Notes: a model not told the origin generated them from the letters alone. Shown: positions 7,123-26,846, counted from the stretch's first letter. The stretch: 64,000 nucleotides of DNA from Dehalococcoidia bacterium (GCA_965261195.1 CBDHDC010000002.1:35266-99265), one strand, 5' to 3'. Numbers and translations are program-made.

Positions 7123-7512
7123 ATGAATGATTTCAATCAGAGAACAAGGAGAGAGGCCGTGAACCCGGAATTCTGGGCCATTATCGGCGTCGGCGTAGCG
7201 CTGGCGGGCCTGCAATGGCGCTTGTACGGCAGCTTGAACGCCAACCTGAATGCTCGCATGGACCGCATCGAGACGCGCATCGACCGCATCCAAGCCAACC
7301 TCACCAGCATCAAAGAACGCCTGTCGCGCATCGAAGGCTGGATCGCCGGGCGCTTTCGGGGAAGAAACCGTACCGTCCGCATAGCGCAAGTCCAGGGCAG
7401 CAGTACAGGTACTGACCCCGCACGCCCCAAGCGAACAGCTGCCTCCGGCGCTTCCTGCGCCAATTTCGCCACCACTACTCTACCTGCCGACACATCCCGC
7501 CAGACATCCTGA
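7123..7512 (+). CDS. hypothetical membrane-anchored coiled-coil protein
   Basis: A transmembrane-like stretch FWAIIGVGVALAGL is followed by the heptad-like LNARMDRIETRIDRIQANLTSIKERLSRIEGWI. The ORF sits in DNA inserted between mnt and hepT, and its 3' third looks non-coding. Confidence 0.35.
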   Translation: MNDFNQRTRREAVNPEFWAIIGVGVALAGLQWRLYGSLNANLNARMDRIETRIDRIQANLTSIKERLSRIEGWIAGRFRGRNRTVRIAQVQGSSTGTDPARPKRTAASGASCANFATTTLPADTSRQTS

Positions 7513-7524
7513 ACACGAGCCTGA

Positions 7525-7873
7525 CTAACTGACCCCGACCTGACCAAACTTCCGCCAGATATCGTGATAAACCCCGAGCAAAATTCCTGAAACTGAACAC
7601 TCTTTCCTGCGAATGTAGTTCGGACTTCGTTCGACAGACGGGCGAGTCAGGATGTCCACCGGCCTGCCGAACAGGTCCGAGAGTTCGCCAGCGATGCTCA
7701 ACAAAGCGCAGTCCCGGCGTCTGCCCCGGTTCGAATTCGACCAGGAGGTCGATATCGCTCTGGGGTCCGAAGTCGTCTCTGAGCGCCGAGCCGAAGACGG
7801 CAAGACTTGCAATGCCGTTGGCACGGCAGAATTCAGCCAGGCGGTCTCCTGGAAACAGTATGTTTTGGTTCAT
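7525..7873 (-). pseudogene. mntA: MNT-type nucleotidyltransferase antitoxin, frameshifted
   Basis: N-terminal LAVFGSALRDDFGPQSDIDLLVEFEPGQTPGL is in one frame. The expected continuation ALLSIAGELSDLFGRPVDILTRPSVERSPNYIRRKE is in another. Confidence 0.7.
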
Positions 7874-8198
7874 GACGTGGGATCCTGTCGTTGTGTTTCG
7901 ATGTTTCGCAAGCCCGATTTTATCTCATCAGAAGTAGGTGAACGAGGTTTCGTGCAGGGTGTTCTGCCAAAATCTGCGTGTGCTTGTCCAAGCTTTGTTC
8001 GAGTTTGGCGTGCGCTCGGATTTTTGTGCAGAAAGTCAGTTTGCACAAAAGGTCATCGTAAATCAGGACTTTTTGTGCAAAGCCGCCCGCCCGGTGGTTT
8101 GAAATTCGTCGAGAAGGTGCTTCAATGAGGAGATCATAGTAATATGCCGGGTATTTGTGTAGGTTTCAGGAAGGTTCGGCAAGCAATTCAGTCAGGAA

Positions 8199-8234
8199 AG
8201 GGGCGACGGCCTTCGGGTCGGACGCCCCTTTTTT
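8199..8234 (+). terminator. rho-independent terminator-like hairpin with a T6 run
   Basis: The sequence is AGGGGCGACGGCCTTCGGGTCGGACGCCCCTTTTTT. It marks the left edge of the ORFan-rich element. Confidence 0.5.
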
Positions 8235-8259
8235 CGTGTGCCGAGGTTACTGAAGGGTG

Positions 8260-8976
8260 TCAGCGTCCTGGTTTCCGGATCCGGTAATAGCCCTGGGGCA
8301 TCCGTTTGGCCGGTACGTGAGGGGCGTCTTTTTTGACGGGGACGTTCATTGGCAGGGATTCGGCCGGTGGTGGAAGCGGTGGTTTTGTTTCCGGATAGAG
8401 AATTTCCGGGTGTGGCGTTGGCGGCCGCGCAACCAGGTGATGATGTTTCGGGTCGTGATGGTACTGGTTCATCTGCATGCGGGGCGGCTCATTGGGCAGG
8501 TGAATGTGCTCAGGATGGGGTTCTTGTCCCCGGTGACTCTGCCTGGGAGCGTTGGGAAGGTAGACAGCGTAGTGACGAACTTCCTTGTTCAGCCGCGGAT
8601 TGTACCGGTGCCAGGCATGACTCGCAGCCCTGGACGCTTTCTTGTCGAGGTTGGCGACGGCTTTCTGGAGAGCAGCCTGGGCTTCCTTTCTGAAAATGGT
8701 GCCTGTTTCGCTCTTGGTCGAGGTGATGCGGAGCCGTTCGGCGATGCGAAAGGGGTGTAAGCGCTGGAGACGCACGAGGTCCCCGAAGACGTGGGCGAAG
8801 AATGTCTGAACCTCGGCGAACGGAACAACGGGGGCATAGCCTTCGAAGTGAACGACAACCCGGGTCCGGCCTCTGCGTCTGATGATGTAATAGGTGAGTT
8901 CGCGTCTGAGCAGGATGGCTTCGTCCAGGTTGCAATCGTGGGGAAAGTCTTCGGCAGCGTGTATGTGGATGGACAT
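8260..8976 (-). CDS. hypothetical protein with a Pro/His-rich C-terminal tail
   Basis: 238-aa ORF. The first ~140 aa look globular and the tail is low complexity (HPEHIHLPNEPP...KPPLPPP). Confidence 0.5.
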   Translation of the reverse strand: MSIHIHAAEDFPHDCNLDEAILLRRELTYYIIRRRGRTRVVVHFEGYAPVVPFAEVQTFFAHVFGDLVRLQRLHPFRIAERLRITSTKSETGTIFRKEAQAALQKAVANLDKKASRAASHAWHRYNPRLNKEVRHYAVYLPNAPRQSHRGQEPHPEHIHLPNEPPRMQMNQYHHDPKHHHLVARPPTPHPEILYPETKPPLPPPAESLPMNVPVKKDAPHVPAKRMPQGYYRIRKPGR

Positions 8977-9006
8977 TGTAGGTACTCAGAAGGTTGATTT
9001 GCGCCG

Positions 9007-9474
9007 TCAAGTTTGGGTTGTAAAGGAGTAATTGTCGGGAAATTCGCGGGGATGGTAACAGTTTGCAGTCTGCTGGGCGAGAGCAGATGTCCTCTGGAGA
9101 GGGGGAAAGCCAAAGGGTTGGCGGTTTCCAGAGGGTTTCTCAGGATTTGTTTGGTAGAGCCGGGGCCTGTTTGGCAGACCTGTTTGCTCGTTTGCGGCGG
9201 GAGTGGCGACGGGTGGCGTGCCAGACGTACGCAGAATGTCCAGCTGCTGGGCGATCTCTGTGTTGCAAGCGCGTGCATGGTCGAGGGTGTGGAGCGTTTC
9301 GGTGAGGTCGCTCAGCAAGATGTTGAACGCTTCCTGATTGAATACCGGTAGGTACGGCGGACTTGTGGGAGCTTCGAGGGTAGGTGCGTCGCAGAAAGAA
9401 CCGGTGTCGACCGGTGTGGACTGGATCAGGTCGGAACGTATCTGATTGTCTGTCTGTGTAATCAGGCGGGCCAT
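9007..9474 (-). CDS. hypothetical protein (weak call)
   Basis: 155-aa ORF with partly low-complexity composition and no motif. Confidence 0.3.
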   Translation of the reverse strand: MARLITQTDNQIRSDLIQSTPVDTGSFCDAPTLEAPTSPPYLPVFNQEAFNILLSDLTETLHTLDHARACNTEIAQQLDILRTSGTPPVATPAANEQTGLPNRPRLYQTNPEKPSGNRQPFGFPPLQRTSALAQQTANCYHPREFPDNYSFTTQT

Positions 9475-11474
9475 GTCCTTCTTGATGAGCGCCAGAAGGA
9501 GGTTCTGGGGCAGGACGAAGCTGCCAGGAGTGAGTGTGGCGGTGAGAAGAACGACGTAACCGGCATGAACAGGTCGCTTGCTTGGGTTTATGTCCGGGCT
9601 TTTGGGCGGACTGGGCGCTAGCTTGTTGGATTTTGGATGCGCCGGTGGCGCCGGATGTGCTCAAGGATCGATGTCTTCATGAGCGACGCCGGCTTGTGGA
9701 GGAGGGAAGTTGTGGTGTCAGGGGGGTCTTCTGCTTTTGTGAGGGCAAGGATAGCCAGGAAGTCTGCTTCGGAAGAGCGGGGCAGACTCCCCGACGCTTC
9801 CCGTAAATCATTATAGGACTTGTGTAATTTCGGGTAATTTTGCCTTTGAGGTTGCATGGCGTATGATATCGGCGTTCCTGCTGCACCCCTCAGTTGCTTT
9901 ACGCAGTGAGATTTATCTTTCCCGGTAGGAGTTGGCAGCAAGCTCCGCCGCTTGGAAGGGCCGCTTTTCGGGCTCTTCCCGGCAGTTCCATTTGCTTGGA
10001 GGAAGTTTCCGGGACTTCTTCCTCGGCGTTGTGCGAAGACATAAGTGCTTCACGCACGCCGTATTCCGTTTCGGCTTCCGTCACTACGAGGACGGGGCCA
10101 CATTCGGTTTCCTCAAGGGCCTACGACTATGTGTTTCGATGCACGTACGGTGCAGTTGAAAACGCAAAATGTGCGGTTCACAGCCGCTTTCCTCATGCCT
10201 GAACCTTCTGCGTCCAGCGGAAGATCCGGCCTTTTTCCCCGCTTCTGCGTCCAGTGGAAGCGCGGATGTTGTGTGCCCTCGCGTTCAGCGAGGCCATGGT
10301 TTGACCGTCAACCCCGGTCGTTCAGAACCGGGAGGCAGCACAAACCGTCGTCCAGACGGGAATTTGTGCGGCTCCGCACGCCGCAAAGTTGTATCGCGGC
10401 TGCGGCATGGATTTGATATACGCCTGTGGCGTCACTAGCGAGGGATTTTACGGCTAGTGACGACGGAACGGCGTAAATGGTTTAAGTCTTTAAGAACGAA
10501 AGGTTTAGATTGGGTTGAACTGGCGTCCACAAAAAAGATTTCAGGTGAGACACCAAATTGTCCACAATTTTGCCTTTGGTAAGGGTCCGTCCCTGCCGAA
10601 GCTGTGCTGGAGACTCGCAGTAGTCCCGTAAGGGTGCGAGTTTCAGCGGCTCTGTTATTCCCCCCGAGTACGGGTGGGCCAGACACGACATGCTCTGTCT
10701 GGTGAGGGCCTGAGCACTGAGCGGTCAATTCCCCCCACAAATCAGGGCAGATTAAGCCTGGACAAGGTTTTTTCCACAGGAAAAGACTGGTACCGGAGGT
10801 GCGTTCAACCTTCGGAGGAGGTTGGTAACGGCTCTGGCGCTGCCATGGGGAAGCGTCCGTAGGTAGGTCACATAAAGGTGGCCTGAGAGGGGATATAAGT
10901 GGATTAAGGGTGGTATGGGTTGGAACGGGTTGAATCAAGGTTGAAAATGGGTAGATCAACCATCGGTTGAATTGGCTAAGACTTAGCTGAGAGTGGCTGG
11001 ACATGCTGCGAGTGCAAGTTGTAGGAGTCAGTTTCAAGCAATGGTTTCCTGGCGTTAATGCCGGGATCAGGCCGGATACGGTCGGTTTCCGGTTGAATTG
11101 ACTGTTGGCCTTGGGAAGGTAGAACGCGGACCGTCGGCAAGCCTGTTTTGAACTGCCGCGGACCTGGGGCATTGGGTGGGTGGAAGGGGTCGTCGACGGC
11201 ATGGGTCGACGGCTCGAATGGATGGGTCGGGAGCAGGGGCAGTTGGGAGGTGTCAGGAATGGAGGCCGGGCTGGGTTGGAGGCTGGACGGATTGGCGGCC
11301 GATGATCTGGGAATGGTGGTCTTGGTTCAGCTCAGTCCGAGGAAGCGTCTGAAGGTGGTTTGTGAGCTGAAGGCTGCCTTGGATTTGGAAGAGAATCTGG
11401 ACGGAGGGTCTTGATGGAGAAGTTGGACGTGGACACGCTGCGGGGGTCGCCTCTCAAAAGCATTTCTCAACCCG

Positions 11475-11729
11475 GTGATTGCCGAGGTTCGGGTCTGGAT
11501 GGGGATGGAGGCGTTATGGCATCTTCGGAAGCTGGGAGCGCGCAAGTTTGTGGACGTAGTTTCGGTGGAGACGTCGCTGTCGCTTCAGCGGGCCGAACTG
11601 TTGGTGAGGTGCTGGGAAGTAGCGAGAGGCAAGAACCGGGATCTTGTGCGGTTGTGCCTGGACCGGCCGTGGGAGTTGGTCGAGGGTTTTGAGGAGACAG
11701 ATTGCCCAGGGTTTTTTCTGGTTGGGTAG
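11475..11729 (+). CDS. hypothetical small protein (weak call)
   Basis: The 84-aa ORF has protein-like composition (EALWHLRKLGARKFVDVVSVETSLSLQRAELLVRCWEVARGKNRDLV) and runs into the 83-bp repeat E1. Confidence 0.3.
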   Translation: MIAEVRVWMGMEALWHLRKLGARKFVDVVSVETSLSLQRAELLVRCWEVARGKNRDLVRLCLDRPWELVEGFEETDCPGFFLVG

Positions 11730-11789
11730 TGTGATGGGAAGGGTGTACCCGGAAAAACGCTTCTGAGGCGATTCTGGGGACAAATTCAG
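11707..11789 (+). repeat. 83-bp direct repeat E1 (pair with 12253-12335)
   Basis: CAGGGTTTTTTCTGGTTGGGTAGTGTGATGGGAAGGGTG...GAAAAACGCTTCTGAGGCGATTCTGGGGACAAATTCAG is about 80% identical to E2. Confidence 0.75.
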
Positions 11790-12252
11790 TATCTGTTGGT
11801 GGGGTCGGTTGTCGGACGGCTGAGGTCAAGGGCGGGGGCGTGGCTTTCGGGCGTGGGCGGCGCAGCGGGAAACGCCCCCGCCCTTGTCTGTGGGTGGGTC
11901 GTGGTGCTGGGATTCTTTCGAGCCGGATGAGGTCGGGATGAGCCAGGCGAAGCAGAGGGAGCGCAAGGAACGCAGGTAAAAGTATGGGGTCCATGGGGGG
12001 ACTTCGCCGGCAGTCCCGGGAGAGGGCACTGGCAGGGGCATTGGCGGCTTGCCGTCACACATCGAGATTCCGCGTCATACGATTCAGGTTCCTGGATCAG
12101 GACCGGGATCCGGCCGAAGGGTTTCTTGAGTTTGTGGACAAGCTGCAGAACGCGACCCCTGAAGAGGCCGAAGGCTGGGTTCGTGGTGAGGAGGAAAGTA
12201 CGGACAGTTGAGCGGAGAGAGAGAAGGTTGAAAAACCGTCTGAGTGTCCGTT

Positions 12253-12335
12253 CAGGGTTTTTGCGGGTGGGGTAGTGTCATGGGCAGGGTGCTGTCTTGA
12301 AAACGCTTCTCAGGCAATTCTGGGAGCAAATTCGG
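12253..12335 (+). repeat. 83-bp direct repeat E2
   Basis: The sequence is CAGGGTTTTTGCGGGTGGGGTAGTGTCATGGGCAGGGTG...GAAAACGCTTCTCAGGCAATTCTGGGAGCAAATTCGG. It lies immediately 3' of the 485-aa gene (stop at 12351). Confidence 0.75.
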
Positions 12336-12350
12336 GAACGGTAAAGCTCC

Positions 12351-13808
12351 TCACCAGGGGCGGAGCGGATCAAGGACTTCCGCGGGCCAGGTGATCTGGT
12401 AGGAAAACGGTTCGTCCTCGAAGGTCAGGTTTTTCCGGTCAGCCTCTTGGGTGGTGATGTGATTCCAGAGATCAAAGGTTTCAATGTCGAGATAGAGCGA
12501 TTCCGTAACGATGAGCAGAGCGCCTTCTTCGTCGTAGGAAGCATCGAAGTCAGGACCGCGTTCGAGGATGTTGAGTGCCTGCACGTCGTTCTTGTCGCGG
12601 GCCTGGGTGGTGAGGGTCACTTTGTCCAGGTGGGGTTGCGGCCGTTCATGGACAGCATCGAGGACGTAGACGTTCAGGTAATGGAGCCAGGTGTCGAAGG
12701 CTTGGTTTTGCAGGAAGTCGTTGTACTCGATCAGGGCGTCGGTCATGTCGTCGATGATCTTTTCAGGCTTGAGTACTCGTTCGGGGTCGGCGCTTGGTTC
12801 TCGGTTCAGGTAGTCGCCGATGGGAAAGATCGTTTCCGACTCGGGCAGGGTGTCGATCGTTCGGGCCAGCTGGTGGCAAGGGTTCCGGATGTCTCTGGCG
12901 ATGTGCCGCAGGCCCTGCCGGTTTTGCGGCAGGTCGAGGGCGGCCTGGCGCGCGAGGTAGTTCTGGCAGGAAGAATCCATCAGCGTGTATTCGTCTGGGT
13001 CCTGGATATCGTTCAGGGTTGTCATGAGGGGCAGGAAGTCGTGGGGCCAGATGAAGGTATGGGCGCGGCGAATGTCTTGCTGGTGGTGACGTCGGAAACG
13101 TTTGGCCATGCCGGGAACGTCGGCCAGCTGTTGGGTCGATATTTTCTCCCAGGCTTCGGGGTCGGTGATCTCTCCGGTGTCCGGGTCTTGCATGGCTTTG
13201 GAAAAGATGAACGCCGGCGGCTCTTCCCGGAAGACGACTCGCAAGACAACGTCGCCGTCTTCGATGCGGAGCGTGAAGTCAGGACCGTTTTCGAGAATCT
13301 GTTTCGGAGACTGGTGGGCGCCAACCAGGAAGTCGATTTGAATTTGTCCGAAAGGGTCGAGGCCGTGTTTGGCGTCGAGCGGGCTTTTGGGAATGTCTGA
13401 GAGGACCAGGGCTTCGGCGCGGTTGGCGGGGAGTTTGACCGCGGTGGGGTCAAGAACATGGGCGCGGACCAGGTAGTGAACGGCCAGGACCCAGAACACG
13501 TTTGCTTCCAAGGTGAGAAGACGGAAATAGGTGCTTGCCGCCATGGCCTGCTGGCAGGTCAGGTGTTGGCCTCTGGTTTCGGTCAGCAGGCTTTGGAGGG
13601 GAAAGAGCGGCTGGATGTGGTTGGGGATATCCAGGAGGCTGTGGACGATGGCCCGGAGGGGCTCGTCCACAGCCTCTTGCATTTGTACGAGGTCGTTGTG
13701 GTCTTTTGCGTATGGGTTGTCCAGAGTTTCCAGAAATCCGCCAAGGACGTCTTCGTCGAGGGTGGTGGTCCAGGGCTCGTTCGGCATGGCTGTCGGGTCT
13801 CCGCTCAT
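12351..13808 (-). CDS. ORFan protein, paralog A (485 aa)
   Basis: Long ORF that is collinear with the upstream 478-aa gene and roughly 55-60% identical by eye. Shared blocks include WEKISTQQLADVPG.AKRFRRHH, NTWLHYLNVYVLDAVHERPQPHLDK and TWPAEVLDPL. The start overlaps the paralog B stop (ATGA). Confidence 0.8.
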   Translation of the reverse strand: MSGDPTAMPNEPWTTTLDEDVLGGFLETLDNPYAKDHNDLVQMQEAVDEPLRAIVHSLLDIPNHIQPLFPLQSLLTETRGQHLTCQQAMAASTYFRLLTLEANVFWVLAVHYLVRAHVLDPTAVKLPANRAEALVLSDIPKSPLDAKHGLDPFGQIQIDFLVGAHQSPKQILENGPDFTLRIEDGDVVLRVVFREEPPAFIFSKAMQDPDTGEITDPEAWEKISTQQLADVPGMAKRFRRHHQQDIRRAHTFIWPHDFLPLMTTLNDIQDPDEYTLMDSSCQNYLARQAALDLPQNRQGLRHIARDIRNPCHQLARTIDTLPESETIFPIGDYLNREPSADPERVLKPEKIIDDMTDALIEYNDFLQNQAFDTWLHYLNVYVLDAVHERPQPHLDKVTLTTQARDKNDVQALNILERGPDFDASYDEEGALLIVTESLYLDIETFDLWNHITTQEADRKNLTFEDEPFSYQITWPAEVLDPLRPW

Positions 13809-15241
13809 GAGGGTTGGAGTGGATCAAGGACTTCCGCGGGCCAGGTGAAGTGGTAGGCAAACGGCTCGCTTTCAAAGGTGAGGTTTTTTTGGTTCGCTTC
13901 CCGGACGGTGATGTGGTTCCAGATGGCCGTGGTGCCCGTGTCGTTGAAAAGCGGCTCTGTCGTGATGAGAAGGGTGCCGTCGGCGGCGTAAGAGGTATGG
14001 AAGTCGGGACCGCGTTCAAAAAAGTCGAAGGCCTGCACGTCGCCTTTGTCGCGGGCTTGGGTGGTGAGGGTCCGTTTGTCCAGGTGAGGTTGCGGCCGTT
14101 CATGGACGGCATCCAGGACGTAGACGTTCAGGTAGTGGAGCCAGGTGTTGAAGGCTTTGTCTTGCAGATAGTCGTAGTACGTGATGAAGGCGGTGGTCAC
14201 GTCAGGGGTGGTGTCTTTGGTGTCAGGTTTTCGCTGCAGGTAATCCTCGATTGGAAAAACGGCTTGGGACTCGGGCAGGGTGTCGATCAGGCGGGCGAGT
14301 AGATGGCAAGGGTTCCGGGTGTCCTGGGCGATTCGCCGCAGGCCTTCCCGGTTTTGCGGCAGGTCGAGGTCGGCCTGGCGTGAGAGGTAGTTCTGGAAAA
14401 AAGGATCCATGGTCTTTTGGTGGTGCGTATTCTGCGGGTTGTCCAGGGTTTTCATCACGGGCAGGAAGTCCTTGGGCCAGGTGAAAACATGTACGCGGTG
14501 GATGTTTTGAAGGTGGTGACGCCGGAAACGTTTGGCGAGGCCGGGAACGTCGGCCAGCTGTTGGGTCGATATTTTCTCCCAGGTTTTCGGGTCGGTAATA
14601 GCGTCTGTTTCTGGATCCTGGATGGTTTCGGAAAAGATGAATGCCGGCGGTTCCGCTTCGAGGACGACCCGCAGGATGATGTCTTCGTTTTCGACGCCAA
14701 GCGTGAAGTCGGGGCCGTTTTTGAGGACTTGCCTTGGGGACCGGTGTCCACCCAGCAGGAAGCGGACTTCAATCCAGCTGTCAGGGTCTGGGTCGTGCTT
14801 GGTGCCGAGCTGGTCCCCGGAAAGGTCCCACAGGGTCAGCGCTTCTTTGCGGTTGGCGGGGAGTTTGACGGTGCCGGTGTCGTCGAGGACGTAAGCGCGG
14901 ATCAGGTAGTGAACGGCGATGACCCAGAAGCTGATTTTTTCCAGTATCAGGAGGCTGTGGTAGATGTTGGCTGCCTGTGCCTGCTCGCAGGTGAGGTGCC
15001 GGACTCTGGGTTCGGTCAGCAACTTGCGAAGGGGAAAGAGCGGTTGTGTGTCGTCGGGTATGTCCAGGAGTGTATGAACGATATTCTGGAGCAGTCCGCT
15101 GATGGCCTCCTGCATTCGGGCGAGGGTTTCGCGGTCCTTCGGGTATGGGGTTTCCAGGGGCTCAAGAAAGTCGTTCAGGGTTTCTTCGTCGAAGACGGTG
15201 GTAAAGAGCTCGTTGTCTGGTATTGCTTTGGATGTTGGCAT
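13805..15241 (-). CDS. ORFan protein, paralog B (478 aa)
   Basis: See paralog A. No recognisable catalytic or binding motif. Confidence 0.8.
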   Translation of the reverse strand: MPTSKAIPDNELFTTVFDEETLNDFLEPLETPYPKDRETLARMQEAISGLLQNIVHTLLDIPDDTQPLFPLRKLLTEPRVRHLTCEQAQAANIYHSLLILEKISFWVIAVHYLIRAYVLDDTGTVKLPANRKEALTLWDLSGDQLGTKHDPDPDSWIEVRFLLGGHRSPRQVLKNGPDFTLGVENEDIILRVVLEAEPPAFIFSETIQDPETDAITDPKTWEKISTQQLADVPGLAKRFRRHHLQNIHRVHVFTWPKDFLPVMKTLDNPQNTHHQKTMDPFFQNYLSRQADLDLPQNREGLRRIAQDTRNPCHLLARLIDTLPESQAVFPIEDYLQRKPDTKDTTPDVTTAFITYYDYLQDKAFNTWLHYLNVYVLDAVHERPQPHLDKRTLTTQARDKGDVQAFDFFERGPDFHTSYAADGTLLITTEPLFNDTGTTAIWNHITVREANQKNLTFESEPFAYHFTWPAEVLDPLQPS

Positions 15242-15391
15242 GGCTGTCGGGTCTCCGCTTTCAGGTCATGTCAAGGAAGTCTTCGACCTCGCCCCATTCG
15301 ATCGGGGGCATGGTGCCGGTGGTCAGAAGTTTCAGATTACGGCTGGTGCTGGGGGCGTCGCGGGTCATGACCGTCGAATAGGTCTTGTTGG

Positions 15392-16399
15392 TTACGGGGT
15401 GGTCCATGTCGGGAGTGAGCAGATGGCAAGGAAGTCTTTGACGTTCTTCCATTCGGCCGGGGGCATGGCGCCAACGGCCAGAAGTTTCAGGTTGCGGCTC
15501 GTGCTGGGGGTATCACGGGTCACGACCGTCAGATAGATCTCGTTGGTTACAGGGTGGACCATGTCCGGAGCGAGCAGGCCGCAAAAGAGCGCTGTGGCTT
15601 CCTTGTAGGTGAGACCGAGGACCATGCCGGCGATATGTCTTGCTTGGTCGGGGTCGGTGTTGCTCAGGTGGTTTGTTACATGGTCCCCGAAACGGCTAAG
15701 GGTCCAGATGGCAAGGTTGCCGCCCCAGGAGCCATCGTTCATGACAAACGGCAAGCCTTGAGACGGGTCGAGAATGAGGGTCGAAAGGTGGCTGCGGAGG
15801 TCGCGGGGCGTCCAGAGCTCGTCGACGGCCTGGAAGTGGTTGTGGCTTGTGCTGGGGAGGTCTTTCACCATGTCTGCCAGTTCGAGCAGACGCTGGTTTC
15901 GAATGTTCAGGCTGACGTGGTTCCAGGCTTCAACCGGGCTTTGGCCGTCGGCGCAGGCTCTGAGAACGGACGCGGTGTGCTGCGGCGTTATGGCGTCGAA
16001 GCGTCCGAGAAGGCAGGCCGGGTTGAGAATCGGCGACAGGCTGGTGAGCAGGACGGTTCCGGCAGGTGGTTCAGGGAGGCCCAGAGCTTCAGCGGCGATC
16101 TTTGCGATGGCTTCCTGCGAAAGCGGCAGGGGGATGTCTTGTTCGCGGGCGGCAGTCAAGGCGGCCCAGGCTTCGAGATTGCCGCAGGTGTCGCCTTCCC
16201 AGGGAATCCAGGAAGGTTCGAAGTCGTTGTCGCGGACGTCGCCGGTCATGAAGAAGTGGTCGAGGTGGTCAAGGACTGGCTCAACGTCGGTGTGGTCGTG
16301 CTGGTTAAAAGCATTGTAGTAGCTGGCTTCGTGGTTGAGCTGGTAAGGCGGCAGGCCGTCCAGGATATTGGCCAGGCGGTTCAGGAAGGGGTTGTTCAT
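15392..16399 (-). CDS. ORFan protein (335 aa) with a duplicated C-terminal module
   Basis: Long ORF. The last ~45 aa (LLAPDMVHPVTNEIYLTVVTRDTPSTSRNLKLLAVGAMPPAEWKNVKDFL) are repeated out of frame just downstream (15261-15452: LLTPDMDHPVTNKTYSTVMTRDAPSTSRNLKLLTTGTMPPIEWGEVEDFL). Confidence 0.7.
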   Translation of the reverse strand: MNNPFLNRLANILDGLPPYQLNHEASYYNAFNQHDHTDVEPVLDHLDHFFMTGDVRDNDFEPSWIPWEGDTCGNLEAWAALTAAREQDIPLPLSQEAIAKIAAEALGLPEPPAGTVLLTSLSPILNPACLLGRFDAITPQHTASVLRACADGQSPVEAWNHVSLNIRNQRLLELADMVKDLPSTSHNHFQAVDELWTPRDLRSHLSTLILDPSQGLPFVMNDGSWGGNLAIWTLSRFGDHVTNHLSNTDPDQARHIAGMVLGLTYKEATALFCGLLAPDMVHPVTNEIYLTVVTRDTPSTSRNLKLLAVGAMPPAEWKNVKDFLAICSLPTWTTP

Positions 16400-16431
16400 C
16401 TGAATAGCTCCTTTGGGGTTTGGGTTCAGGT

Positions 16432-17355
16432 TTATTTTCCGAGATAGACGTAAGTAATCCGTAGGCGTCCATGCCCCATTTCCTCGCTGATCTTCAGGCG
16501 CGCCTGGACGTCGATCTTGTGGTTTTCTTTGGAAAGGTCGTCTTGGGGTAGTCCGCCTCTTGCGGGACAGTGCCAGCCTTCTCCTTTGGGATCGAGTTGT
16601 CGGGTGAGGGTTCTGTAACGTCGCTGGGCATAAGCGTGGCGCAGGCCGTGCATATTTGAGAGCCCGGCGCGGCGGCTCTGTGTCTTGAGAACGTTGCGTT
16701 GCTGGTGAAAATCCTTGTCTTCCGGTATCAAAGCTCTGCCTGGTGGAACCAGGGCTTTTGCTTCGTCCAGGGCCTGTCGTTGGCCGGGGGTGGTCAGGAG
16801 TACGTCGCGGGGCTTGCCACCCTTCGCCCAGCTATCTTGCAGGTGGATGCGGTCGCCGCGGTCGGCTTCGTGCGGTCGGATCATGATGGCCTCTTTCTGC
16901 CGCAGGCCGAACTCGCGTTGCAAGATGAGGCTCGCATGCGTCAGGGGGTCGCGGACCTTGCCCAGGGATCCCTGGTCGAGACTGCGGGCCTTGTCGGTGT
17001 AGTTGGGTTTTTCCCTGGGTGGAAGCATGCCGTACTCGTCGTTGGTGCGCTTGACGATGTTGGGCTTGCCGATTTCGGCGGCGAACCAGCGCAGGGTGGA
17101 CAAGCGGTTGTCAATGGTGCGGCGTGAGATGCCGTTGTCAGCCCACATTTGCAGGGCATGCTCGATGTGTTTGGGCCGGGTGTTCTCCGGCTTGGGGTTG
17201 TAGCCGCCGTCGTAAAGGGTCTGCACGAAGATGCGCAGGTAGCTCTCGCGTGCTTGGCGGGTTGCGTAGGAGCCGCTCGGGGCTTTTTCCTGGTGGACGT
17301 AGTCCAGCCACTTGCGCAGTTTGTTGTTGCTCAGGGGTTTGGGGTTGTTTTGCAT
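16432..17355 (-). CDS. tyrosine recombinase / phage-type integrase
   Basis: 307 aa containing HGLRHAYAQRRY and the C-terminal GHGRLRITYVYLGK (the R...HxxR...Y catalytic layout). The N-terminal region is homologous to the truncated copy at 5711-6145. Confidence 0.85.
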   Translation of the reverse strand: MQNNPKPLSNNKLRKWLDYVHQEKAPSGSYATRQARESYLRIFVQTLYDGGYNPKPENTRPKHIEHALQMWADNGISRRTIDNRLSTLRWFAAEIGKPNIVKRTNDEYGMLPPREKPNYTDKARSLDQGSLGKVRDPLTHASLILQREFGLRQKEAIMIRPHEADRGDRIHLQDSWAKGGKPRDVLLTTPGQRQALDEAKALVPPGRALIPEDKDFHQQRNVLKTQSRRAGLSNMHGLRHAYAQRRYRTLTRQLDPKGEGWHCPARGGLPQDDLSKENHKIDVQARLKISEEMGHGRLRITYVYLGK

Positions 17356-17357
17356 GG

Positions 17358-17681
17358 TCAGGGAACCAGCTGTCGGTCGTAGATGCGGCCGATCCAGCGA
17401 ATGGCGGAGAGCCGGTCGTTAATGGTTTTTTGTTTGACTTTGAGCTGCCAGAGGGTTTTCAAGAAAGCGGTATGGTCGGGGGTGAACTCGTCCGGTCGAA
17501 TGACCATGCCGGCTTTGGCCAGGGTTCGGGCGATAAGAAGAACGTGTCGGCGGCGGATTTTCCGCGTTGAGGGCTTGTTGGACCGGTGACGGTCAAGAAG
17601 GTCTTCCCAGCTCTTGTCAATATGTAAGCCATGTCGTTTTTGAATCCGGGCGATTTTCTTGCGGGCGCTGCGGGTTGGCAT
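17358..17681 (-). CDS. small protein resembling the integrase N-terminal (SAM-like) domain
   Basis: TPDHTAFLKTLWQLKVKQKTINDRLSAIRWIGRIY parallels KPKHIEHALQMWADNGISRRTIDNRLSTLRWFAAEIGK of the integrase. Its stop is 3 nt from the integrase start. Confidence 0.6.
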   Translation of the reverse strand: MPTRSARKKIARIQKRHGLHIDKSWEDLLDRHRSNKPSTRKIRRRHVLLIARTLAKAGMVIRPDEFTPDHTAFLKTLWQLKVKQKTINDRLSAIRWIGRIYDRQLVP

Positions 17682-17988
17682 GGTCAGGGTGTCCTGATTG
17701 GGTTGGGGTAAGGGAATTTGTTGAAAGGGGGATTTTGAGCCGTTTTTGCAGGGGGTGCAAGGAATTCCTGGACTTGATGAGATACTTTCGGGATGGTTTA
17801 TGCCTTGTGGCGAAGAGGGCGGTCTTGCTGCAGGGTTGATGGTGAGCAGGGATCAAGATGCTCAAGGTTGAATAAGGGTTGGAACAAGGCGGACAAGGAT
17901 TGGACAAGGACAGATTGCCTTTTCGGGAACGATTACGGTATAACGAAACAGGTATGCGGCAAGGGGTCCAGTTCGTTCAGGAAAAGAC

Positions 17989-18396
17989 TTGTTGGGGAGG
18001 ATTCAGGTGGTAGCGAAAAACTCGGAAACGGCGCCGAAAGGCAAGGTCAACATCCTGGATCGGTTGCAGGCGCGAGGAAGGATTCCCGGAACTCGAGGTG
18101 GCACGAAGCTTTCGAAGTTCATGGCCAGGGAAGAAGAAATCCGTGAGGCGCTGGCAGCCGGGTATTCGATAAAGGACGTGTATGACTGTTTGCAGGACGA
18201 AGGCGTCATTGACCTGTCGTATTCGCTTTTCAGCGAGTATGTGCGGACGAAGTTGCAGATGCGTCAGCGGCAGGGATTTGAGCGCGTCAAGGTGATTGCG
18301 GAAGGAGAAACGGTAGTCCAGGAACCTCAGCTGACCGAAGAGGAGAAAAAGCGGAACATGATGGTTCACGGCAATCCGGAAGGCCGGCCGGCGTAA
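17989..18396 (+). CDS. hypothetical small basic protein, possible HTH (start uncertain)
   Basis: The translation contains KLSKFMAREEEIREALAAGYSIKDVYDCLQDEGVIDLSYSLFSEYVRTKL. This is the first gene divergent from the integrase operon. Confidence 0.5.
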   Translation: MLGRIQVVAKNSETAPKGKVNILDRLQARGRIPGTRGGTKLSKFMAREEEIREALAAGYSIKDVYDCLQDEGVIDLSYSLFSEYVRTKLQMRQRQGFERVKVIAEGETVVQEPQLTEEEKKRNMMVHGNPEGRPA

Positions 18397-18403
18397 TGAG
18401 GCG

Positions 18404-18778
18404 GTGAAGCAAGGAGCTGAAACCATGTATCGGGAGCACATGAGCAAGGCAGGCATGGTGGTGGTGCAGATTCACGATCGTCTTTGGTCCTGGCAGGGAG
18501 ACCGGTTGTACAGACTGCTTGTTGCCGGCTTGCTGGGAACTCTGGTGTTGTCGGCGGTCTTGTTGTGGACCGGGTTCAGGTCCCCGGACGACCGTTGGGA
18601 GACAGTGGCTGGCAGTCGGGCGGCCGTGGCGATCGAAAGCTTCAAGCTGCGCCGGTTGACTTATCGGTTGCCGCCGGAGTGCGCGATTGTGGTGTTGTTT
18701 GACAGCCCGGGAGCGGTCGGTCGGTGCTTGTCGGAAATCAGCGGTGATGCTGAAAAGGAGGAGCCATCGGTCAGGTGA
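18404..18778 (+). CDS. hypothetical membrane protein
   Basis: One hydrophobic span, LYRLLVAGLLGTLVLSAVLLW. Confidence 0.45.
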   Translation: MKQGAETMYREHMSKAGMVVVQIHDRLWSWQGDRLYRLLVAGLLGTLVLSAVLLWTGFRSPDDRWETVAGSRAAVAIESFKLRRLTYRLPPECAIVVLFDSPGAVGRCLSEISGDAEKEEPSVR

Positions 18779-18800
18779 ATGAGGCAAGGGGAGGGTTGTC

Positions 18801-19292
18801 ATGAGCTCCGAAGCAGTCATGTGCGAATGGGTCGGGACAGTTCTTGGACTGGGAGCGGGGTCCTTGATCGTCGGCGGCGTGATGTATGGCGCCTGCCGAT
18901 TGATGGGCAAGAAGATGTGGGTGGTCGGTCCGAAGGGTTTGGGCGAGATTGTCGAGGTGAACGTGCTTGAGTGGCCGCTGGCGCCGGCCTGGCTTGTTGG
19001 TGTGGTGCTGGGGATGCTGTCCTATGCGGCGTTTTACGGGTTGGGGCTTCCTGTTCTGGCGCCGAGTGTGTGGATCGGTGGCTTGTTGGGAATTGGCGGC
19101 TATGGGGCGGCGAAGATGCTGTCGGAAAACTGGGTGCATTACGAGACGTCGCCGTCCGACGAGGTGCTGGTAGCGGTTGGCATGCAGCGAGACAGTTTTG
19201 ACGAGCTGGTGAGCCAGTGGCGTGAGCAGGCTGGGAAAGCGCCCAGGCGTGGTTGCTTGTGTCGCGCGCCGGGTGCGCGGTGGGCAGCGTAG
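18801..19292 (+). CDS. hypothetical multi-pass membrane protein
   Basis: Several Gly-rich hydrophobic spans (VGTVLGLGAGSLIVGGVMYGA; LVGVVLGMLSYAAFYGLGLPVLAPSVWIGGLLGIGGYGA). Confidence 0.55.
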   Translation: MSSEAVMCEWVGTVLGLGAGSLIVGGVMYGACRLMGKKMWVVGPKGLGEIVEVNVLEWPLAPAWLVGVVLGMLSYAAFYGLGLPVLAPSVWIGGLLGIGGYGAAKMLSENWVHYETSPSDEVLVAVGMQRDSFDELVSQWREQAGKAPRRGCLCRAPGARWAA

Positions 19293-19314
19293 GCCAGGGG
19301 GAGGGCTTCAGAGC

Positions 19315-19800
19315 ATGGAGATCGAGTCGGTCGGGCCGTCGGCATGGGTCATGGCGGGTCTGGTTGTTGGCATGGCGATAGCCGGGCTTCTGGTCGTGGT
19401 TCTGAGCTGGCGGTTCTTGAAGTCGGCGGCGATGTTGGTCATTGCTCTGGGGATGCTTGGCGGGCTGGGGGTGGTCATGTACGCCGTCGTTCTGGAAGAG
19501 CCGGTCGATATCGAGGGCTGGCGAGGGAAGCTGGAATCCGGCATCGAGCGCCTGAAGGAGGTGGTTCTGGAAATCCGGGAGTCGGACGGCGAGGCTGGCG
19601 AGCGGGAGTTTTCTGGCCCCAGGATGCCGTCAGGAAATTTTGTTGCCAAGCGAGTGTCAAGACTGGGGGGGAGTCCTGAAAAAAGGGTAAAGGAGAGCTG
19701 GAATGGAAGACAGGGACCTGGACAAGTTGTCCGAGAACGTCATGGCGCTTTTGCGCGAGATGTCGCAGCGGCAAACGATGATGTTTCACTTGCTGCGTGA
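19315..19800 (+). CDS. hypothetical membrane protein (3' end uncertain)
   Basis: Internal start MEIESVGPSAWVMAGLVVGMAIAGLLVVVLSW is followed by a second transmembrane span. The ORF overlaps the next gene by 98 nt, so the true end is doubtful. Confidence 0.4.
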   Translation: MEIESVGPSAWVMAGLVVGMAIAGLLVVVLSWRFLKSAAMLVIALGMLGGLGVVMYAVVLEEPVDIEGWRGKLESGIERLKEVVLEIRESDGEAGEREFSGPRMPSGNFVAKRVSRLGGSPEKRVKESWNGRQGPGQVVRERHGAFARDVAAANDDVSLAA

Positions 19801-20152
19801 GATATACGAGGAATCGAGGTTGCCGATCAAGCTGGTGCGGGAGGTGGAGGAAGACGTGTATCTGTCGCGGCGCAATCCTCGGGACCGGGGGGTTTCGGGC
19901 AGAGACGAGGACGACAGGGAAGGGGATGATCCGATGGCACAGCTCGAAGGCATGGGCAACCCGGACGCCATCCCGGTGGTTCCCGAGGGCATGCAGGTGA
20001 CCTGTATTCGTTGCAGTTACCAGTGGCGGCCAAGAATTCCGCAGCCGTCGCTGTGCGCCAAGTGCAACGCCCCATGGTGGTACGCGCCGCGTTGGCGCTG
20101 GCATATGAAGGACAAGAAAAAAGGGAAGAAGCGCGTTACCGGGATTGAATAA
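19703..20152 (+). CDS. hypothetical protein with a C-terminal zinc-ribbon-like CxxC...CxxC
   Basis: Good RBS (AAAGGAGAG) upstream of the ATG. The motif is CIRCSYQWRPRIPQPSLCAKCNAPWW. Confidence 0.6.
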   Translation: MEDRDLDKLSENVMALLREMSQRQTMMFHLLREIYEESRLPIKLVREVEEDVYLSRRNPRDRGVSGRDEDDREGDDPMAQLEGMGNPDAIPVVPEGMQVTCIRCSYQWRPRIPQPSLCAKCNAPWWYAPRWRWHMKDKKKGKKRVTGIE

Positions 20153-20273
20153 CGGGAAAGCGTGATATACTCCGGATTGCTTTGCCAAGGTAATTTCGAG
20201 TCGGGCGATAAACGAGAAAGGCCGGACGGCTTCATGCGCCGTCCGGCCCGCGTGCTCGACTTCTTACCAGCTC

Positions 20274-22007
20274 TTGCAACTGGAGTCGATGCGAATGGTA
20301 GCACAGCCCCAACTGTTGTTCAACGATAACTCCTCTGCTTCAACACTCCCCACGATTGATTCCAGAATATCTCCTCAGTTCCTTTCTCAGCCTATCTTGT
20401 TTCAGGAGCCTGCCAGTCCGGTTGTCTTGCGTCTGGCGGCGTCAAATCTTTTTGAGAGTCCCAGGCCTGAACCGGACCCTGTTGTAGGGCGGTTGGAGGC
20501 TGATGTCGTCAAGTTGCCGGTGGGTACCCATTTTTGTCTGGTCTTTGAGTGCGGACCGGGCCCGGGTGGCTACCGTGCATTGGGGTCTGGTGTGATGGTC
20601 AAGGCTGCGACCTGGTTTCTGAGGACGGGTACGGAAGGGAAAACGCAGGTGGTATATGTCTTGCGGGACCGACGATTGTCGCAGGGGACTCAGAACGGCA
20701 TGGCGCTGAAGCGATTGCTGGCGTGGTACGGGGCTTGCCTGGAAGCTGAAGACAGCTATCTGGGCTGGGTGCGGCCGTTGGCGTTCAGGAACTTGTTGCC
20801 AATGCAGGTACAGTCAGGCCGTCAGGATGGTTACCGGTTTCTGGAGCTTTGTTCGGGGGTGCGAAAGGATCTTTCGGATTTGGAGCACCAGCGGTTCGCG
20901 GTGCTGGCCCGGTTTTTGTACGACCGCGGGGCGCACTTTGTACTGACGAACGGGGAGAAGCTTCCGGTCGGTGAAAGTGAGGGTGTGAAGGGGAAGGGCT
21001 GGCTCGAGCGGCGTCCGGCGCTGAGTGAGGTCCTGCGGCACCGGGAAGAAGGTGGTCTGTTGGGACTGGTTCCGTGGTCGGTGGGACTGTCGGTACTCGA
21101 TGTGGACGAAGGTTCGCCGGGTGAGTTGATGTCGGTCTTTCCGCCAGCTCTGATGCTGAAGTCGAGAACGTTGAGGCGTTACCACGTCTATTACCGGGAT
21201 GTGCGGCGACGGGGCAACGGCAACTGGGCGGGTTACAAGGCCGCTGGTCAGGTGCGGAGCGGTTCTGGCTTCGTGGTCTTGTGGCAGGGTCTGGGGGCAC
21301 TGGCCGGGATGTTGGCTGCTGGTGCGGGCGGCGTTCTGTTTCCGGAGTCCTCGGTGGTTTTGACGGTAGACAGGAGCAAGCGTTTCGGGCTGGCGTGGGA
21401 GCCTGCTATTACAGGGGGGTTGGCGCCTTGGGAAATGAGTCGGAGCACGGCCAACGGGGTGCTGTTCGAACAGTTGAGGCTGTGGGCTTACAGAGAGCGT
21501 CACAAGCCGCCGTTCCTGGACCTGTGGCTTGAGCGGGTGGCGGCGAAGGCACGGGAGCTGGCGGTAGACGCCGGGTTTCTGGGGTTGCTCAGTCCGCAAG
21601 ACGTGATGGGTATTGCCAGTAGCGTGGGGTCATGGGTGTGGGCCGAACACAGGGGGCAATCGGGAGAGGGCCGACGTCAGACCAACTCGGTGCAGCAGCG
21701 GAAGCGGGCGCTGGTCAGGTGGTATGGGTGTGAGGAGGCATCTGTGGTGGAGAACTTTGATATCCGTGATTACGAGATCGGCCGGCAAGCCGTCAAAGAC
21801 GGTCTGACGACGGCGCAGTTGGTCAAGGAGTACGGGTTACGGGAAAGGCAGATACGGCGGTTGGTCAAGCGATTTCGGGCCAGTCTGGAACCTGGGGGGC
21901 CGCAGTTGGTGGCTCCCTGGTGGACGAGGCCGGATCCGTTGGGGCCGGCAGGTGAGCTCTCGGTTTTTGACGAATTGCCCAAGCACAAGATGTTCAATGA
22001 GTTATGA
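20274..22007 (+). CDS. Prim-Pol / plasmid replicase-type protein with a PriCT-like C-terminal region (ATG alternative at 20289)
   Basis: Prim-Pol-like motifs are LSVLDVDEG (DxD), RRYHVYY and GQVRSGSGFVVLW. The PriCT-like region reads NGVLFEQLRLWAYRER...LERVAAKARELA...IASSVGSWVW. An AT-rich repeat region follows directly. Confidence 0.7.
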   Translation: MQLESMRMVAQPQLLFNDNSSASTLPTIDSRISPQFLSQPILFQEPASPVVLRLAASNLFESPRPEPDPVVGRLEADVVKLPVGTHFCLVFECGPGPGGYRALGSGVMVKAATWFLRTGTEGKTQVVYVLRDRRLSQGTQNGMALKRLLAWYGACLEAEDSYLGWVRPLAFRNLLPMQVQSGRQDGYRFLELCSGVRKDLSDLEHQRFAVLARFLYDRGAHFVLTNGEKLPVGESEGVKGKGWLERRPALSEVLRHREEGGLLGLVPWSVGLSVLDVDEGSPGELMSVFPPALMLKSRTLRRYHVYYRDVRRRGNGNWAGYKAAGQVRSGSGFVVLWQGLGALAGMLAAGAGGVLFPESSVVLTVDRSKRFGLAWEPAITGGLAPWEMSRSTANGVLFEQLRLWAYRERHKPPFLDLWLERVAAKARELAVDAGFLGLLSPQDVMGIASSVGSWVWAEHRGQSGEGRRQTNSVQQRKRALVRWYGCEEASVVENFDIRDYEIGRQAVKDGLTTAQLVKEYGLRERQIRRLVKRFRASLEPGGPQLVAPWWTRPDPLGPAGELSVFDELPKHKMFNEL

Positions 22008-22230
22008 GGATTGAAGGGTTTATGGCGTCTTGCTCGAACATTTCATAAAGTTCTGTAACGAGCTGTTTTTATGTATGTTTCGCAAATTTTGAAAGGTGAT
22101 TATCAAAATCGGTCATGCCGGTTTATCTTGGGTCTTCAATCTTCCTGACCGTATCTGTAAGGTATGGGGATTAAAACTGTACAGTTCTGGATAGTACTTA
22201 GCCCTTTTTAATTCTCCGCGGTTGAGAATA
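22008..22230. other. AT-rich ori-like region downstream of the replicase gene
   Basis: A marked local drop in GC (TTTCATAAAGTTCTGTAACGAGCTGTTTTTATGTATGTTTCGCAAATTTTGAAAGGTGATTATCAAAATC). The position matches origins of ColE2/Prim-Pol-type replicons. Confidence 0.4.
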
Positions 22231-22312
22231 CTTCAGGTGCAAGTCATCAGACCCGCCCCCGAGATTTCGGGCTCGCCCGAGTTCCCCCCCGCCTGCAAAG
22301 AGTCTTGTGTGT

Positions 22313-22534
22313 GCGTGCGCCTGCTTTGTCCTGCTTTGCTTTGCCCTGCCTTGCCTTTTTTTTGTTCCCGGCCGGGAGTTTCGTTGCCTGTGACGATTTG
22401 GAGCTTCGGCCGGTCCTGAGTCTCATGTTTGCGTGCGCCTGCTTTGTCCTGCTCTGCTTTGCCCTGCCTTGCCTTTTTTTTGTTCCCGGCCGGGAGTTTC
22501 GTTGCCTGTGGCGATTTGGAGCTTCGGCCGGTCC
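22313..22534. repeat. two 104-bp direct repeats (22313-22416 and 22431-22534)
   Basis: Near-identical units of GCGTGCGCCTGCTTTGTCCTGCT...TTGTTCCCGGCCGGGAGTTTCGTTGCCTGTG.CGATTTGGAGCTTCGGCCGGTCC, with a 118-bp period. Confidence 0.85.
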
Positions 22535-22670
22535 CGCCCTGTTTTTCAGCCTTTCAGGGGATTGATCCCCGCTTTTCAAAGGTTTTTACCTTCCTGCCGC
22601 ACCCCGAAGTCTGGAGCGTAGCGACGGACGTAGGGGTGCGGCACCAGTGAGCGAAGCGAACGGCTCGGGT

Positions 22671-22808
22671 GGGTCTATCCCCCTGCGTGCGGGGGAATGG
22701 GGTGCTGCGTGTCAACCGATCGACGGGTCTATCCCCGCGTGTCGCTGGTGTCTGGAGGGTCACGGGGGGCCTGGAAGGGGGTCTATCCCCGCGGGCTTGG
22801 GGTCAGTC
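22671..22808 (-). repeat. three type I-E-like CRISPR repeat fragments at a 54-bp period (degenerate; not a functional array)
   Basis: GGGTCTATCCCC occurs at 22671, 22725 and 22779. On the minus strand, unit 1 reads CCATTCCCCCGCACGCAGGGGGATAGACCC, compared with the E. coli I-E repeat GTGTTCCCCGCGCCAGCGGGGATAAACCG. Units 2 and 3 keep only the GCGGGGATAGACCC half. Confidence 0.4.
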
Positions 22809-22844
22809 GGTGGGACGGGGGGTGTCTTCCGGTTCTGGGGATGG

Positions 22845-26828: not shown

Positions 26829-26846
26829 GGCATGTCTCCCTGCTGT

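Follow-up and report, generated by a model that had tools for sequence, protein, structure and literature searches.

Positions 12,351 to 17,681 of a 64,000-nucleotide stretch of DNA from a Dehalococcoidia bacterium (GCA_965261195.1, CBDHDC010000002.1:35266-99265; this whole stretch is called the window below) carry a five-gene minus-strand operon that encodes two new protein families, of about 335 and 480 amino acids (aa), and is embedded in a strand-asymmetric, plasmid-associated mobile block. The pair formed by the two orphan families, rather than the integrase, is the conserved core of the operon. The region would represent the core operon conserved in a rare plasmid-like mobile module that has not been described before, and we put the probability of this anatomical and evolutionary description, together with the reading of the operon as an element-borne accessory module, at roughly 55%. 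Window proteins are named by their length (w107, w307 and so on) and related loci are given L-numbers.

The operon is real and encodes two orphan protein families

All five open reading frames (ORFs) lie on the minus strand at the positions assigned to them in a preliminary description of this DNA. The first gene, w107 (17358..17681), encodes a basic (isoelectric point (pI) 11.7) stand-alone core-binding (SAM-like) domain protein of 107 aa that is a paralog of the integrase N-terminus, and the second, w307 (16432..17355), a complete tyrosine recombinase of 307 aa belonging to the Integrase_1/Phage_int_SAM_2 family. They are followed by w335 (15392..16399), an acidic (pI 4.9) orphan of 335 aa always found directly upstream of a 480-aa gene, and by two members of the 480-aa orphan family: the 478-aa w478 (13805..15241), here called type A and consisting of two tandem alpha+beta units of about 220-260 aa, and the acidic (pI 4.6) w485 (12351..13787, with the ORF extending to 13808), which represents type B, the common form of the family. 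When compared with four related loci, all five genes show their substitution peak at the third codon position of the correct frame. Nei-Gojobori estimates of dN/dS are 0.23-0.25 for the integrase, 0.33-0.41 for the 480-aa family, 0.43-0.52 for the 335-aa gene and 0.54 for the 107-aa gene. The five ORFs are therefore coding and under purifying though fairly relaxed selection, with the orphan proteins evolving faster than the recombinase. The orphan proteins have pI values of 4.6-5.2 and net charges of about -20 to -40, and no signal peptide or transmembrane segment was apparent in the pair on inspection.

No significant match to w335, w478 or w485 was found in Pfam, NCBIfam, PHROGs or PADLOC, the only hit in PADLOC-DB v2 being at chance level (E 0.081), and neither family profile retrieved any sequence from the PDB. 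A word-indexed search of 5.8 billion proteins recovered 13 clusters of the 480-aa family and 23 of the 335-aa family; every one comes from ENA assemblies, and one is also present in Logan. When the profile of the 480-aa family was searched exhaustively as a hidden Markov model against 1.84 billion representative proteins, nine reached E <= 0.001. Among GTDB genomes a single locus was found, in a metagenome-assembled genome (MAG) labelled Dehalococcoidia. Relatives of neither family were present in IMG/VR or in JGI metagenome contigs, and tblastn against a plasmid collection gave no hit for w485 (the only orphan used as a query there) or for the neighbouring window proteins w577 and w638. The two families are unrelated to each other by hhalign. 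The 335-aa and 480-aa proteins are two new protein families of extremely narrow distribution, and the module is known so far from one MAG binned as Dehalococcoidia and a small number of ENA metagenome assemblies. Genes without recognizable homologs are common on mobile elements. In agreement with the earlier observation, no known motif was found in the three orphans. Sequence searches, and a structure search with the 480-aa unit, place them in no well-known family, and they are conserved as coding sequence in relatives.

The 335-aa and 480-aa proteins are conserved as a pair

We examined the gene order of nine related loci. The recurrent arrangement consists of a small core-binding protein, an integrase, a protein of about 330 aa and a protein of about 480 aa. 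In L005 and L006, the most distant relatives (33-36% protein identity), homologs of 333 and 465 aa still lie side by side, and after them comes a 247-aa protein that is a paralog of the N-terminal unit of the 480-aa family; the 335-family homolog of L005, paired with the 465-aa homolog, is 36% identical. No recombinase is present among the four genes called upstream of these pairs, with L005 starting at a contig end, and the upstream positions are instead occupied by an S24 (LexA/CI-like) protein and small proteins. In L007, a half-length paralog of 299 aa precedes a 452-aa homolog. In L013, an inserted recombinase-in-trio (RIT) element (6541-9783) made up of three adjacent Phage_integrase genes separates the Integrase_1 gene from the 331-aa gene. 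The window operon is not itself a RIT element, which requires three adjacent full-length genes, since it carries one full recombinase along with domain-only paralogs. L008 carries the block at 98% DNA identity to the window, in a different context.

Because L005 and L006 keep the pair without an adjacent recombinase, the pair represents the conserved unit, and the link to the integrase holds only within the closer clade. The term 'integrase-led' applied to this operon consequently does not name its defining feature. Genes 3 and 4 would form an obligate pair of acidic, cytoplasmic and apparently non-enzymatic proteins.

The 480-aa protein is built from a duplicated unit with a predicted new fold

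The preliminary description had noted a short internal echo in each 480-aa protein. This echo is real and much larger than noted: profiles of the N-terminal and C-terminal halves match over 163 columns (hhalign probability 97%, E 4.6e-11). Each unit contains the same landmarks, namely an FP motif, a long helix with W..HY/LN.YV, GPDF, a beta region and (F/I)TWP. Judged from this alignment, the 480-aa protein arose long ago by internal duplication of a unit of about 220-260 aa.

Full-length AlphaFold2 prediction of w478 with 11 homologs reached a pLDDT of only 54 and its Foldseek output was meaningless. The C-terminal unit of w478 was then modeled from an alignment mixing N-units, C-units and half-length paralogs for more diversity, which yielded a confident prediction (pLDDT 88.7, pTM 0.84). 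The model consists of a short N-terminal strand, several helices, one of them 36 residues long, and a C-terminal sheet of approximately five strands beginning at GPDF. Foldseek found no structural neighbor of the unit in the PDB (best E 0.47, TM-score ca. 0.2) or in BFVD (best E 0.65). NTPase, helix-turn-helix (HTH) or winged-helix signals were found neither in the orphan sequences nor in the model of the 480-aa unit.

The two 480-aa copies represent distinct lineages

Proteins w478 and w485 are collinear paralogs with 62% identity over 480 residues, slightly above the 55-60% estimated earlier by eye; the invariant blocks quoted at that time are present, apart from one N/D difference. Both the family tree and the identity matrix separate type A from type B. 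Type A (w478, L008_478, L014_478 and P0001) forms a deep clade that is sister to all other members, the latter constituting type B and including w485. Where both types occur (window, L008 and L014), type A is always located upstream of type B. L001/L002, L003, L004 and L012 contain type B alone, and the tandem arrangement first seen in the window is consequently not a typical feature, even though tandem paralogs recur in the family. The type B copy of L008 is frameshifted and P0010 is an A/B chimera. The two types are separated by a dS of 0.59, a value equal to that of distant type B orthologs. The second copy belongs to a lineage of its own and did not arise by recent duplication. A simple tandem duplication in situ was considered as the origin of the paralogs and rejected: the repeat spacings differ (155 bp and 1454 bp) and type A is a deep clade common to several elements.

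Type A proteins are 97-100% identical between elements whose type B proteins are only 88% identical, indicating that type A was recently exchanged between elements. An exact 23-nt leader repeat comprising GGAG and the start codon is found on the minus strand at 13783..13805 and 15237-15259, its two copies flanking the type A gene, and exchange of type A is most simply explained by recombination through this shared leader.

The shared leader also bears on the start of the downstream gene. An ATGA overlap of the 478-aa and 485-aa ORFs is present in the DNA and had been taken to indicate translational coupling. All homologs of the 480-aa family begin with MP(N/D)EP, corresponding to the second ATG of w485 (13787), 21 nt downstream of the first, and this ATG is preceded by the same 17-nt GGAG-containing leader as the 478-aa gene. 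In two relatives with the same tandem, the gene calls start 18 nt after the upstream stop codon. Given this start site in the homologs, the ATGA overlap probably stems from ORF calling and coupling is doubtful; as read from these alignments, the true product of w485 is most likely 478 aa long, starts with MPNEP at 13787 and does not overlap the first gene.

Between the 335-aa and 478-aa genes, the 3' end of the former has been duplicated as a 155-bp tandem repeat (15268-15422 and 15423-15577). The second copy (15268..15422, minus strand) is a remnant 3' end of a 335-type gene and encodes the canonical C-terminus ...EWGEVEDFLDMT, while intact w335 ends in a non-canonical tail, the duplication having replaced its normal C-terminus.

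The operon lies in a strand-asymmetric, plasmid-associated block

The operon is part of a skewed block of about 17 kb (ca. 5,240-23,900) that is broken by an insertion of about 1.6 kb at ca. 6,500-8,100. GC skew ranges from +0.12 to +0.39 per kb between 8 and 24 kb of the window, making the plus strand G+T-rich. At third codon positions, the skew (GC3 skew) is -0.37 to -0.50 in the minus-strand operon genes and +0.32 to +0.44 in plus-strand genes, compared with -0.03, that is none, in the neighboring Rep-like gene w638. Flanking genes are likewise unskewed elsewhere (TnpB, RES and Xre in L008; a resolvase in L012). Skew limited to the block is also observed in L001 (6000-17000), L004 (1000-16500), L008 (1500-19500) and the distant L005 (1000-6000), and thus recurs in relatives only 33% identical at the protein level. 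Because the sign stays the same on the DNA strand whichever way the genes point, the skew is a property of the DNA strand and not of gene orientation. Transcription-coupled mutation was rejected as its cause, genes of both strands showing the same DNA-strand bias. Base composition points to a window plus strand that is repeatedly single-stranded.

In three contigs (window, L001 and L003), the block is bordered by a module consisting of ParA, a small protein and a Rep-like protein, with an array of 21-22-bp iterons located just past the Rep-like gene (window 23789-23873; L003 2546-2650; L001 5255-5309). In the window this module comprises w638 (23928-25844, minus strand), an 85-aa gene and ParA (26175-26849). 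Iteron sequence and Rep-like protein differ in each of the three contigs, and the Rep/iteron/ParA sets are exchangeable replication and partition modules at the edge of the skewed block. Different genes border it in L008 and L012. ProQ/FinO, ParE and TnpB are also encoded in this setting, and the surrounding window is a defence island.

A further protein of the block, the 577-aa w577 (20274-22007, plus strand), carries a C-terminal HTH, weakly matches the DNA-binding domain of ColE2 Rep (PDB 3VW4, E 0.059) and, by eye, has the primase-like motifs 'LDVDEG' and 'YHVYY' (DxD and H). The AT-rich stretch that follows (22000-22240) is a candidate origin. These features raise the question of whether the operon serves replicon maintenance, with the recombinase resolving multimers or cointegrates of an integrative plasmid and the 335-aa and 480-aa proteins acting as core replication or segregation proteins of a unidirectional replicon. 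The pair is always found in strand-skewed DNA, which would be explained if it were such a core, and it is the only content common to the skewed blocks of the window type and the L005 type. L001 and L003 keep the pair though they lack w577, a skew of uniform sign fits unidirectional replication, and Integrase_1 genes are commonly found beside Rep and ParA genes on small plasmids. However, separate unskewed Rep/iteron/ParA modules already flank the block, the strong acidity of the orphans is unusual for initiators or centromere binders, no NTPase, HTH or winged-helix signal was detected in their sequences or in the unit model and one paralog is dispensable, as seen in L008. We consider a maintenance function quite unlikely.

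The strong strand asymmetry, as in single-stranded DNA (ssDNA) replicons, together with the new folds and a set of small membrane proteins encoded on the other strand (18404-19800), could also be reconciled with an unrecognized virus-like element, for example of the membrane-vesicle or ssDNA type, for which the pair would supply structural or morphogenetic proteins. We regard such an origin as very improbable: IMG/VR, PHROGs and BFVD gave no hit, a search for capsid, portal, terminase and packaging ATPase proteins was negative, the orphan proteins lack apparent signal peptides and membrane segments, and the block adjoins plasmid Rep/Par modules.

The block also includes cas5, cas6e and a type I-E-like CRISPR array, all of which show its skew (window 22671-22793 and 23238-23633, minus strand; L004 2064-2800; L008 1446-2832; L012 1601-3170). 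The L004 array contains at least six repeats of ATTCCCCCGCACGCGCGGGGATAAACC at a spacing of about 60 nt. The window keeps only a 3' fragment of cas6e and three degenerate repeats, and the stretches examined contained no further cas genes. The presence of cas5 and cas6e led us to consider the 335-aa and 480-aa proteins as divergent Cas7 or Cas8e. This candidate was rejected: Foldseek found nothing for the 480-aa unit although the PDB holds Cascade, and the cas genes lie 6-8 kb away across genes of opposite strand. In the same part of the window, tandem duplications of 118 bp (two copies) and 244 bp (two copies) are found at 22300-22534 and 22845-23334, the second of which copies the 3' end of the cas6e fragment.

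The recombinase and its small partner suggest activity on the element's own DNA

Both family assignments made earlier for the leading genes are borne out. Protein w307 scores above the Pfam gathering cut-offs for PF12835 Integrase_1 (36.1 bits, cut-off 23) and PF12834 Phage_int_SAM_2 (35.7 bits, cut-off 22), the latter domain occupying residues 24-99. In an alignment with six plasmid homologs of about 40% identity, R152, K178, H236, R239, H295 and Y304 are invariant and the catalytic set is consequently complete. Protein w107 matches the N-terminus of w307 by BLASTP (E 4e-7; E 8e-14 for its L001 ortholog), while its Pfam match to SAM_1 is weak. Proteins w107 and w307 would act on the element's own DNA, either in site-specific recombination (cointegration or resolution) or by nicking at the conserved divergent intergenic region described below. 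The recombinase may thus serve integration, resolution or transfer of the element itself rather than head a cargo system. The block ends, inspected in L008 and L012, showed no att-like direct repeats, and the window contains no tRNA and therefore no tRNA integration target.

The family of w307 is typical of plasmid backbones, and homologs of w307 (ca. 40% identity over more than 90% of its length) are encoded in 213 plasmid records, mostly proteobacterial, 130 of which are typed as non-mobilizable by MOB-suite. The neighbors of the six plasmid homologs examined are Rep and ParA genes or MobA/MobL, type IV coupling protein (T4CP) or replication-relaxation genes. In a Pleionea plasmid (L018, NZ_CP133550.1, 3937-6622), the Integrase_1 gene lies 1 nt upstream of a T4CP gene on a replicon that has no annotated relaxase and is typed non-mobilizable. 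The Integrase_1 family may include relaxases, the Pleionea gene being a lead. This record appears to be an assembled dimer of a plasmid of about 17.6 kb. The literature searched contained no experimental role for Integrase_1.

The operon and the divergent gene w135 (17989..18396, plus strand) are separated by an intergenic region of about 307 bp (17682..17988), a candidate promoter, recombination site or origin of transfer (oriT). Its mean column identity in an alignment of five loci is 79%, with long invariant blocks, and between the window and L001 it is better conserved than the adjacent w107 gene, for which these two share 37% protein and 53% nucleotide identity. Protein w135 is a DUF5338 protein (PF17273, E 5.7e-11) with weak similarity to TraK; tblastn aligned it at 31% identity (E 2e-4) with a 'TraK family protein' of Yersinia plasmids. 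Its gene invariably diverges from the operon, an arrangement kept in L001, L002, L008, L012, L013 and L014. No papers on DUF5338 were found.

Taken together, these features could describe a DNA-transfer module. In such a module, w307 would be a relaxase of the MOB_M kind nicking an oriT in the intergenic region with the help of w107 and the DUF5338 protein, the 335-aa and 480-aa proteins would be relaxosome or establishment proteins and the element would move as ssDNA. Relaxases resembling tyrosine recombinases (MOB_M: MpsA, MobK, TcpM) exist and are often annotated as integrases (PMC6414798, PMC8152469, bioRxiv 10.64898/2026.01.13.699239); MpsA of SGI1, whose oriT lies beside the genes, requires the 98-aa SAM-like MpsB (PMC6414798). 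The stand-alone core-binding paralog w107 is exactly such a protein, a separate accessory of this kind being known for MpsA only. The similarity of divergent w135 to TraK-family proteins, the high conservation of the intergenic region, the uniformly G+T-rich strand over about 17 kb, which fits one strand being repeatedly single-stranded, the Pleionea gene beside a T4CP and the large share of homolog-bearing plasmids typed non-mobilizable are all in line with transfer. In contrast, w307 keeps its own core-binding domain, whereas MpsA, MobK (pIGRK) and TcpM (pCW3) consist of a catalytic DNA_BRE_C domain without a core-binding or arm-binding domain of their own (PMC8152469). Some plasmid homologs adjoin canonical MobA/MobL or replication-relaxation genes and need not be relaxases, no T4CP or type IV secretion system (T4SS) gene was found in the window, the TraK similarity is weak and no inverted-repeat or nic architecture stands out in the intergenic region (DNA fold z-score -1.1). 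On balance, a transfer function is unlikely.

An accessory module whose recombinase handles the element's own DNA remains our preferred reading. We hold a more far-reaching proposal to be unlikely: the block of about 17 kb would be a new class of mobile replicon that is largely single-stranded through unidirectional or strand-displacement replication or ssDNA transfer, driven by an Integrase_1 nickase or relaxase with core-binding and TraK-like proteins. The 335/480 pair, based on a previously unseen fold, would then be its hallmark machinery, protecting or processing the single strand or disarming host defences on entry.

Besides w107, the window encodes another domain-only paralog of the N-terminal part of the integrase at 5711-6145 (minus strand), a protein of 144 aa that is 57% identical to w307 residues 6-139. 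It adjoins a TnpB (IS605-family) gene (4142-5236, minus strand) and a hairpin with 27-nt arms (5404-5469), and this trio recurs in L002, L003, L008 and L012.

Repeats and a conserved non-coding region follow the operon

A repeat of about 88 nt, R, starts approximately 10 nt after the last 480-family gene (12253..12342, minus strand), with a second direct copy at 11707-11796. R occupies the same position in every locus and recurs after each downstream segment, giving two to three copies per element. A 264-aa gene is located between two R copies in L001, L003 and L014 and is absent where the copies have collapsed. RNAalifold predicted no conserved structure for 16 copies of R (0 pairs, 0 kcal/mol), ruling out an integron attC hairpin. 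R may bind a protein, act as a site of recombination or simply offer a substrate for homologous deletion. Partial copies are found at 6369-6399 and, inverted, within 346-461 of the window.

Downstream of the operon, a stretch of about 2.3 kb (9950-12250) is 87-91% conserved in relatives, with substitutions lacking codon periodicity. No credible ORF or Rfam match was found in it, and it may represent a cis-acting region or a long non-coding RNA. Across the block, Rfam yielded only a sub-threshold PtaRNA1 match.

A conflict function of the orphan pair is weighed against other roles

We infer, tentatively and as a suggestion more likely to fail than to hold, that the orphan pair works as a binding complex and not as an enzyme in conflict between elements or in establishment, for example by neutralizing a factor of the host or of a rival element. 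Such a role is hinted at because the proteins are acidic and motif-less, evolve faster than the recombinase, occur as recurrent tandem paralogs and are encoded in a defence-island window. The preliminary description had proposed a defence or counter-defence system; the mobile element and its defence-rich neighborhood agree with this, but PADLOC identified nothing and dN/dS of the orphans, though moderately raised (0.33-0.52), never exceeds 1 in sliding windows, and the proposal stays a guess.

Several observations weigh against a conflict role or limit the support for the accessory reading. At 335-480 aa, the orphans are large for typical anti-defence proteins. They are also the only genes common to two deeply diverged skewed blocks, of the window type and the L005 type, and for this reason the main alternative, a role in the replication or transfer machinery that gives rise to the strand bias, fits at least as well as one in conflict. 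Sliding windows of 60 codons gave dN/dS values between 0.15 and 0.86 and no evidence of positive selection, and such estimates may be distorted by the strong strand bias of mutation. The silence of PADLOC is expected for something new yet lends no support. Finally, the unit fold of the 480-aa protein is provisionally new, as judged from a predicted model against the PDB and BFVD only.

If the description holds, the operon adds two new protein families, one with a confidently predicted fold that lacks a neighbor in the PDB or the viral library, and a new type of element with an orientation-independent GC3 skew of about ±0.4 over about 17 kb. The new fold, the extreme rarity and the strand asymmetry lift the finding above the routine. 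Since the two orphan proteins are compact, cytoplasmic and conserved together, they are directly testable. Integrase_1 provides a test case for distinguishing resolvase, integrase and MOB_M-like relaxase and bears on how many 'non-mobilizable' plasmids are really mobilizable.

The module shares features with known mobile systems

The closest organizational parallel to the first two genes is MpsA/MpsB of SGI1. In both systems, a protein of the tyrosine-recombinase fold that is annotated as an integrase and borne by a mobile element is encoded beside a stand-alone core-binding protein of about 100 aa, with a conserved non-coding region immediately upstream. In contrast to MpsA, w307 has its own N-terminal core-binding domain, a feature absent from the known MOB_M relaxases. 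The small protein is encoded downstream in SGI1 and upstream here, no helper T4SS or T4CP is located near the window operon, and SGI1 has no counterpart of the 335/480 pair.

The Integrase_1 (PF12835)/Phage_int_SAM_2 (PF12834) proteins of proteobacterial plasmids match w307 over more than 90% of its length, with the same R-K-H-R-H-Y set, and reside in a comparable plasmid-backbone setting beside Rep, ParA, Mob or T4CP genes. They differ in being followed by variable genes (hypothetical proteins of about 80-110 aa in five of six cases, T4CP in Pleionea) instead of the 335/480 pair, and none of the six sampled has a domain-only paralog upstream.

Integron platforms are likewise headed by a tyrosine recombinase with a co-oriented array, and the position of R after the last 480-aa gene and after each variable segment, as well as the coincidence of the 264-aa gene with R copies, recall this arrangement. 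However, R lacks a conserved hairpin and is present in only two to three copies per element, the recombinase is not IntI-like, and homologous recombination between R copies explains the cassette pattern equally well.

With regard to function, the orphans can be compared with the acidic anti-defence genes of the ArdA/Ocr type found in plasmid leading regions. They are much larger and share no sequence or structural similarity with any known anti-defence family, but resemble these genes in being acidic, free of enzymatic motifs, element-borne, faster-evolving than the backbone and recurrently duplicated.

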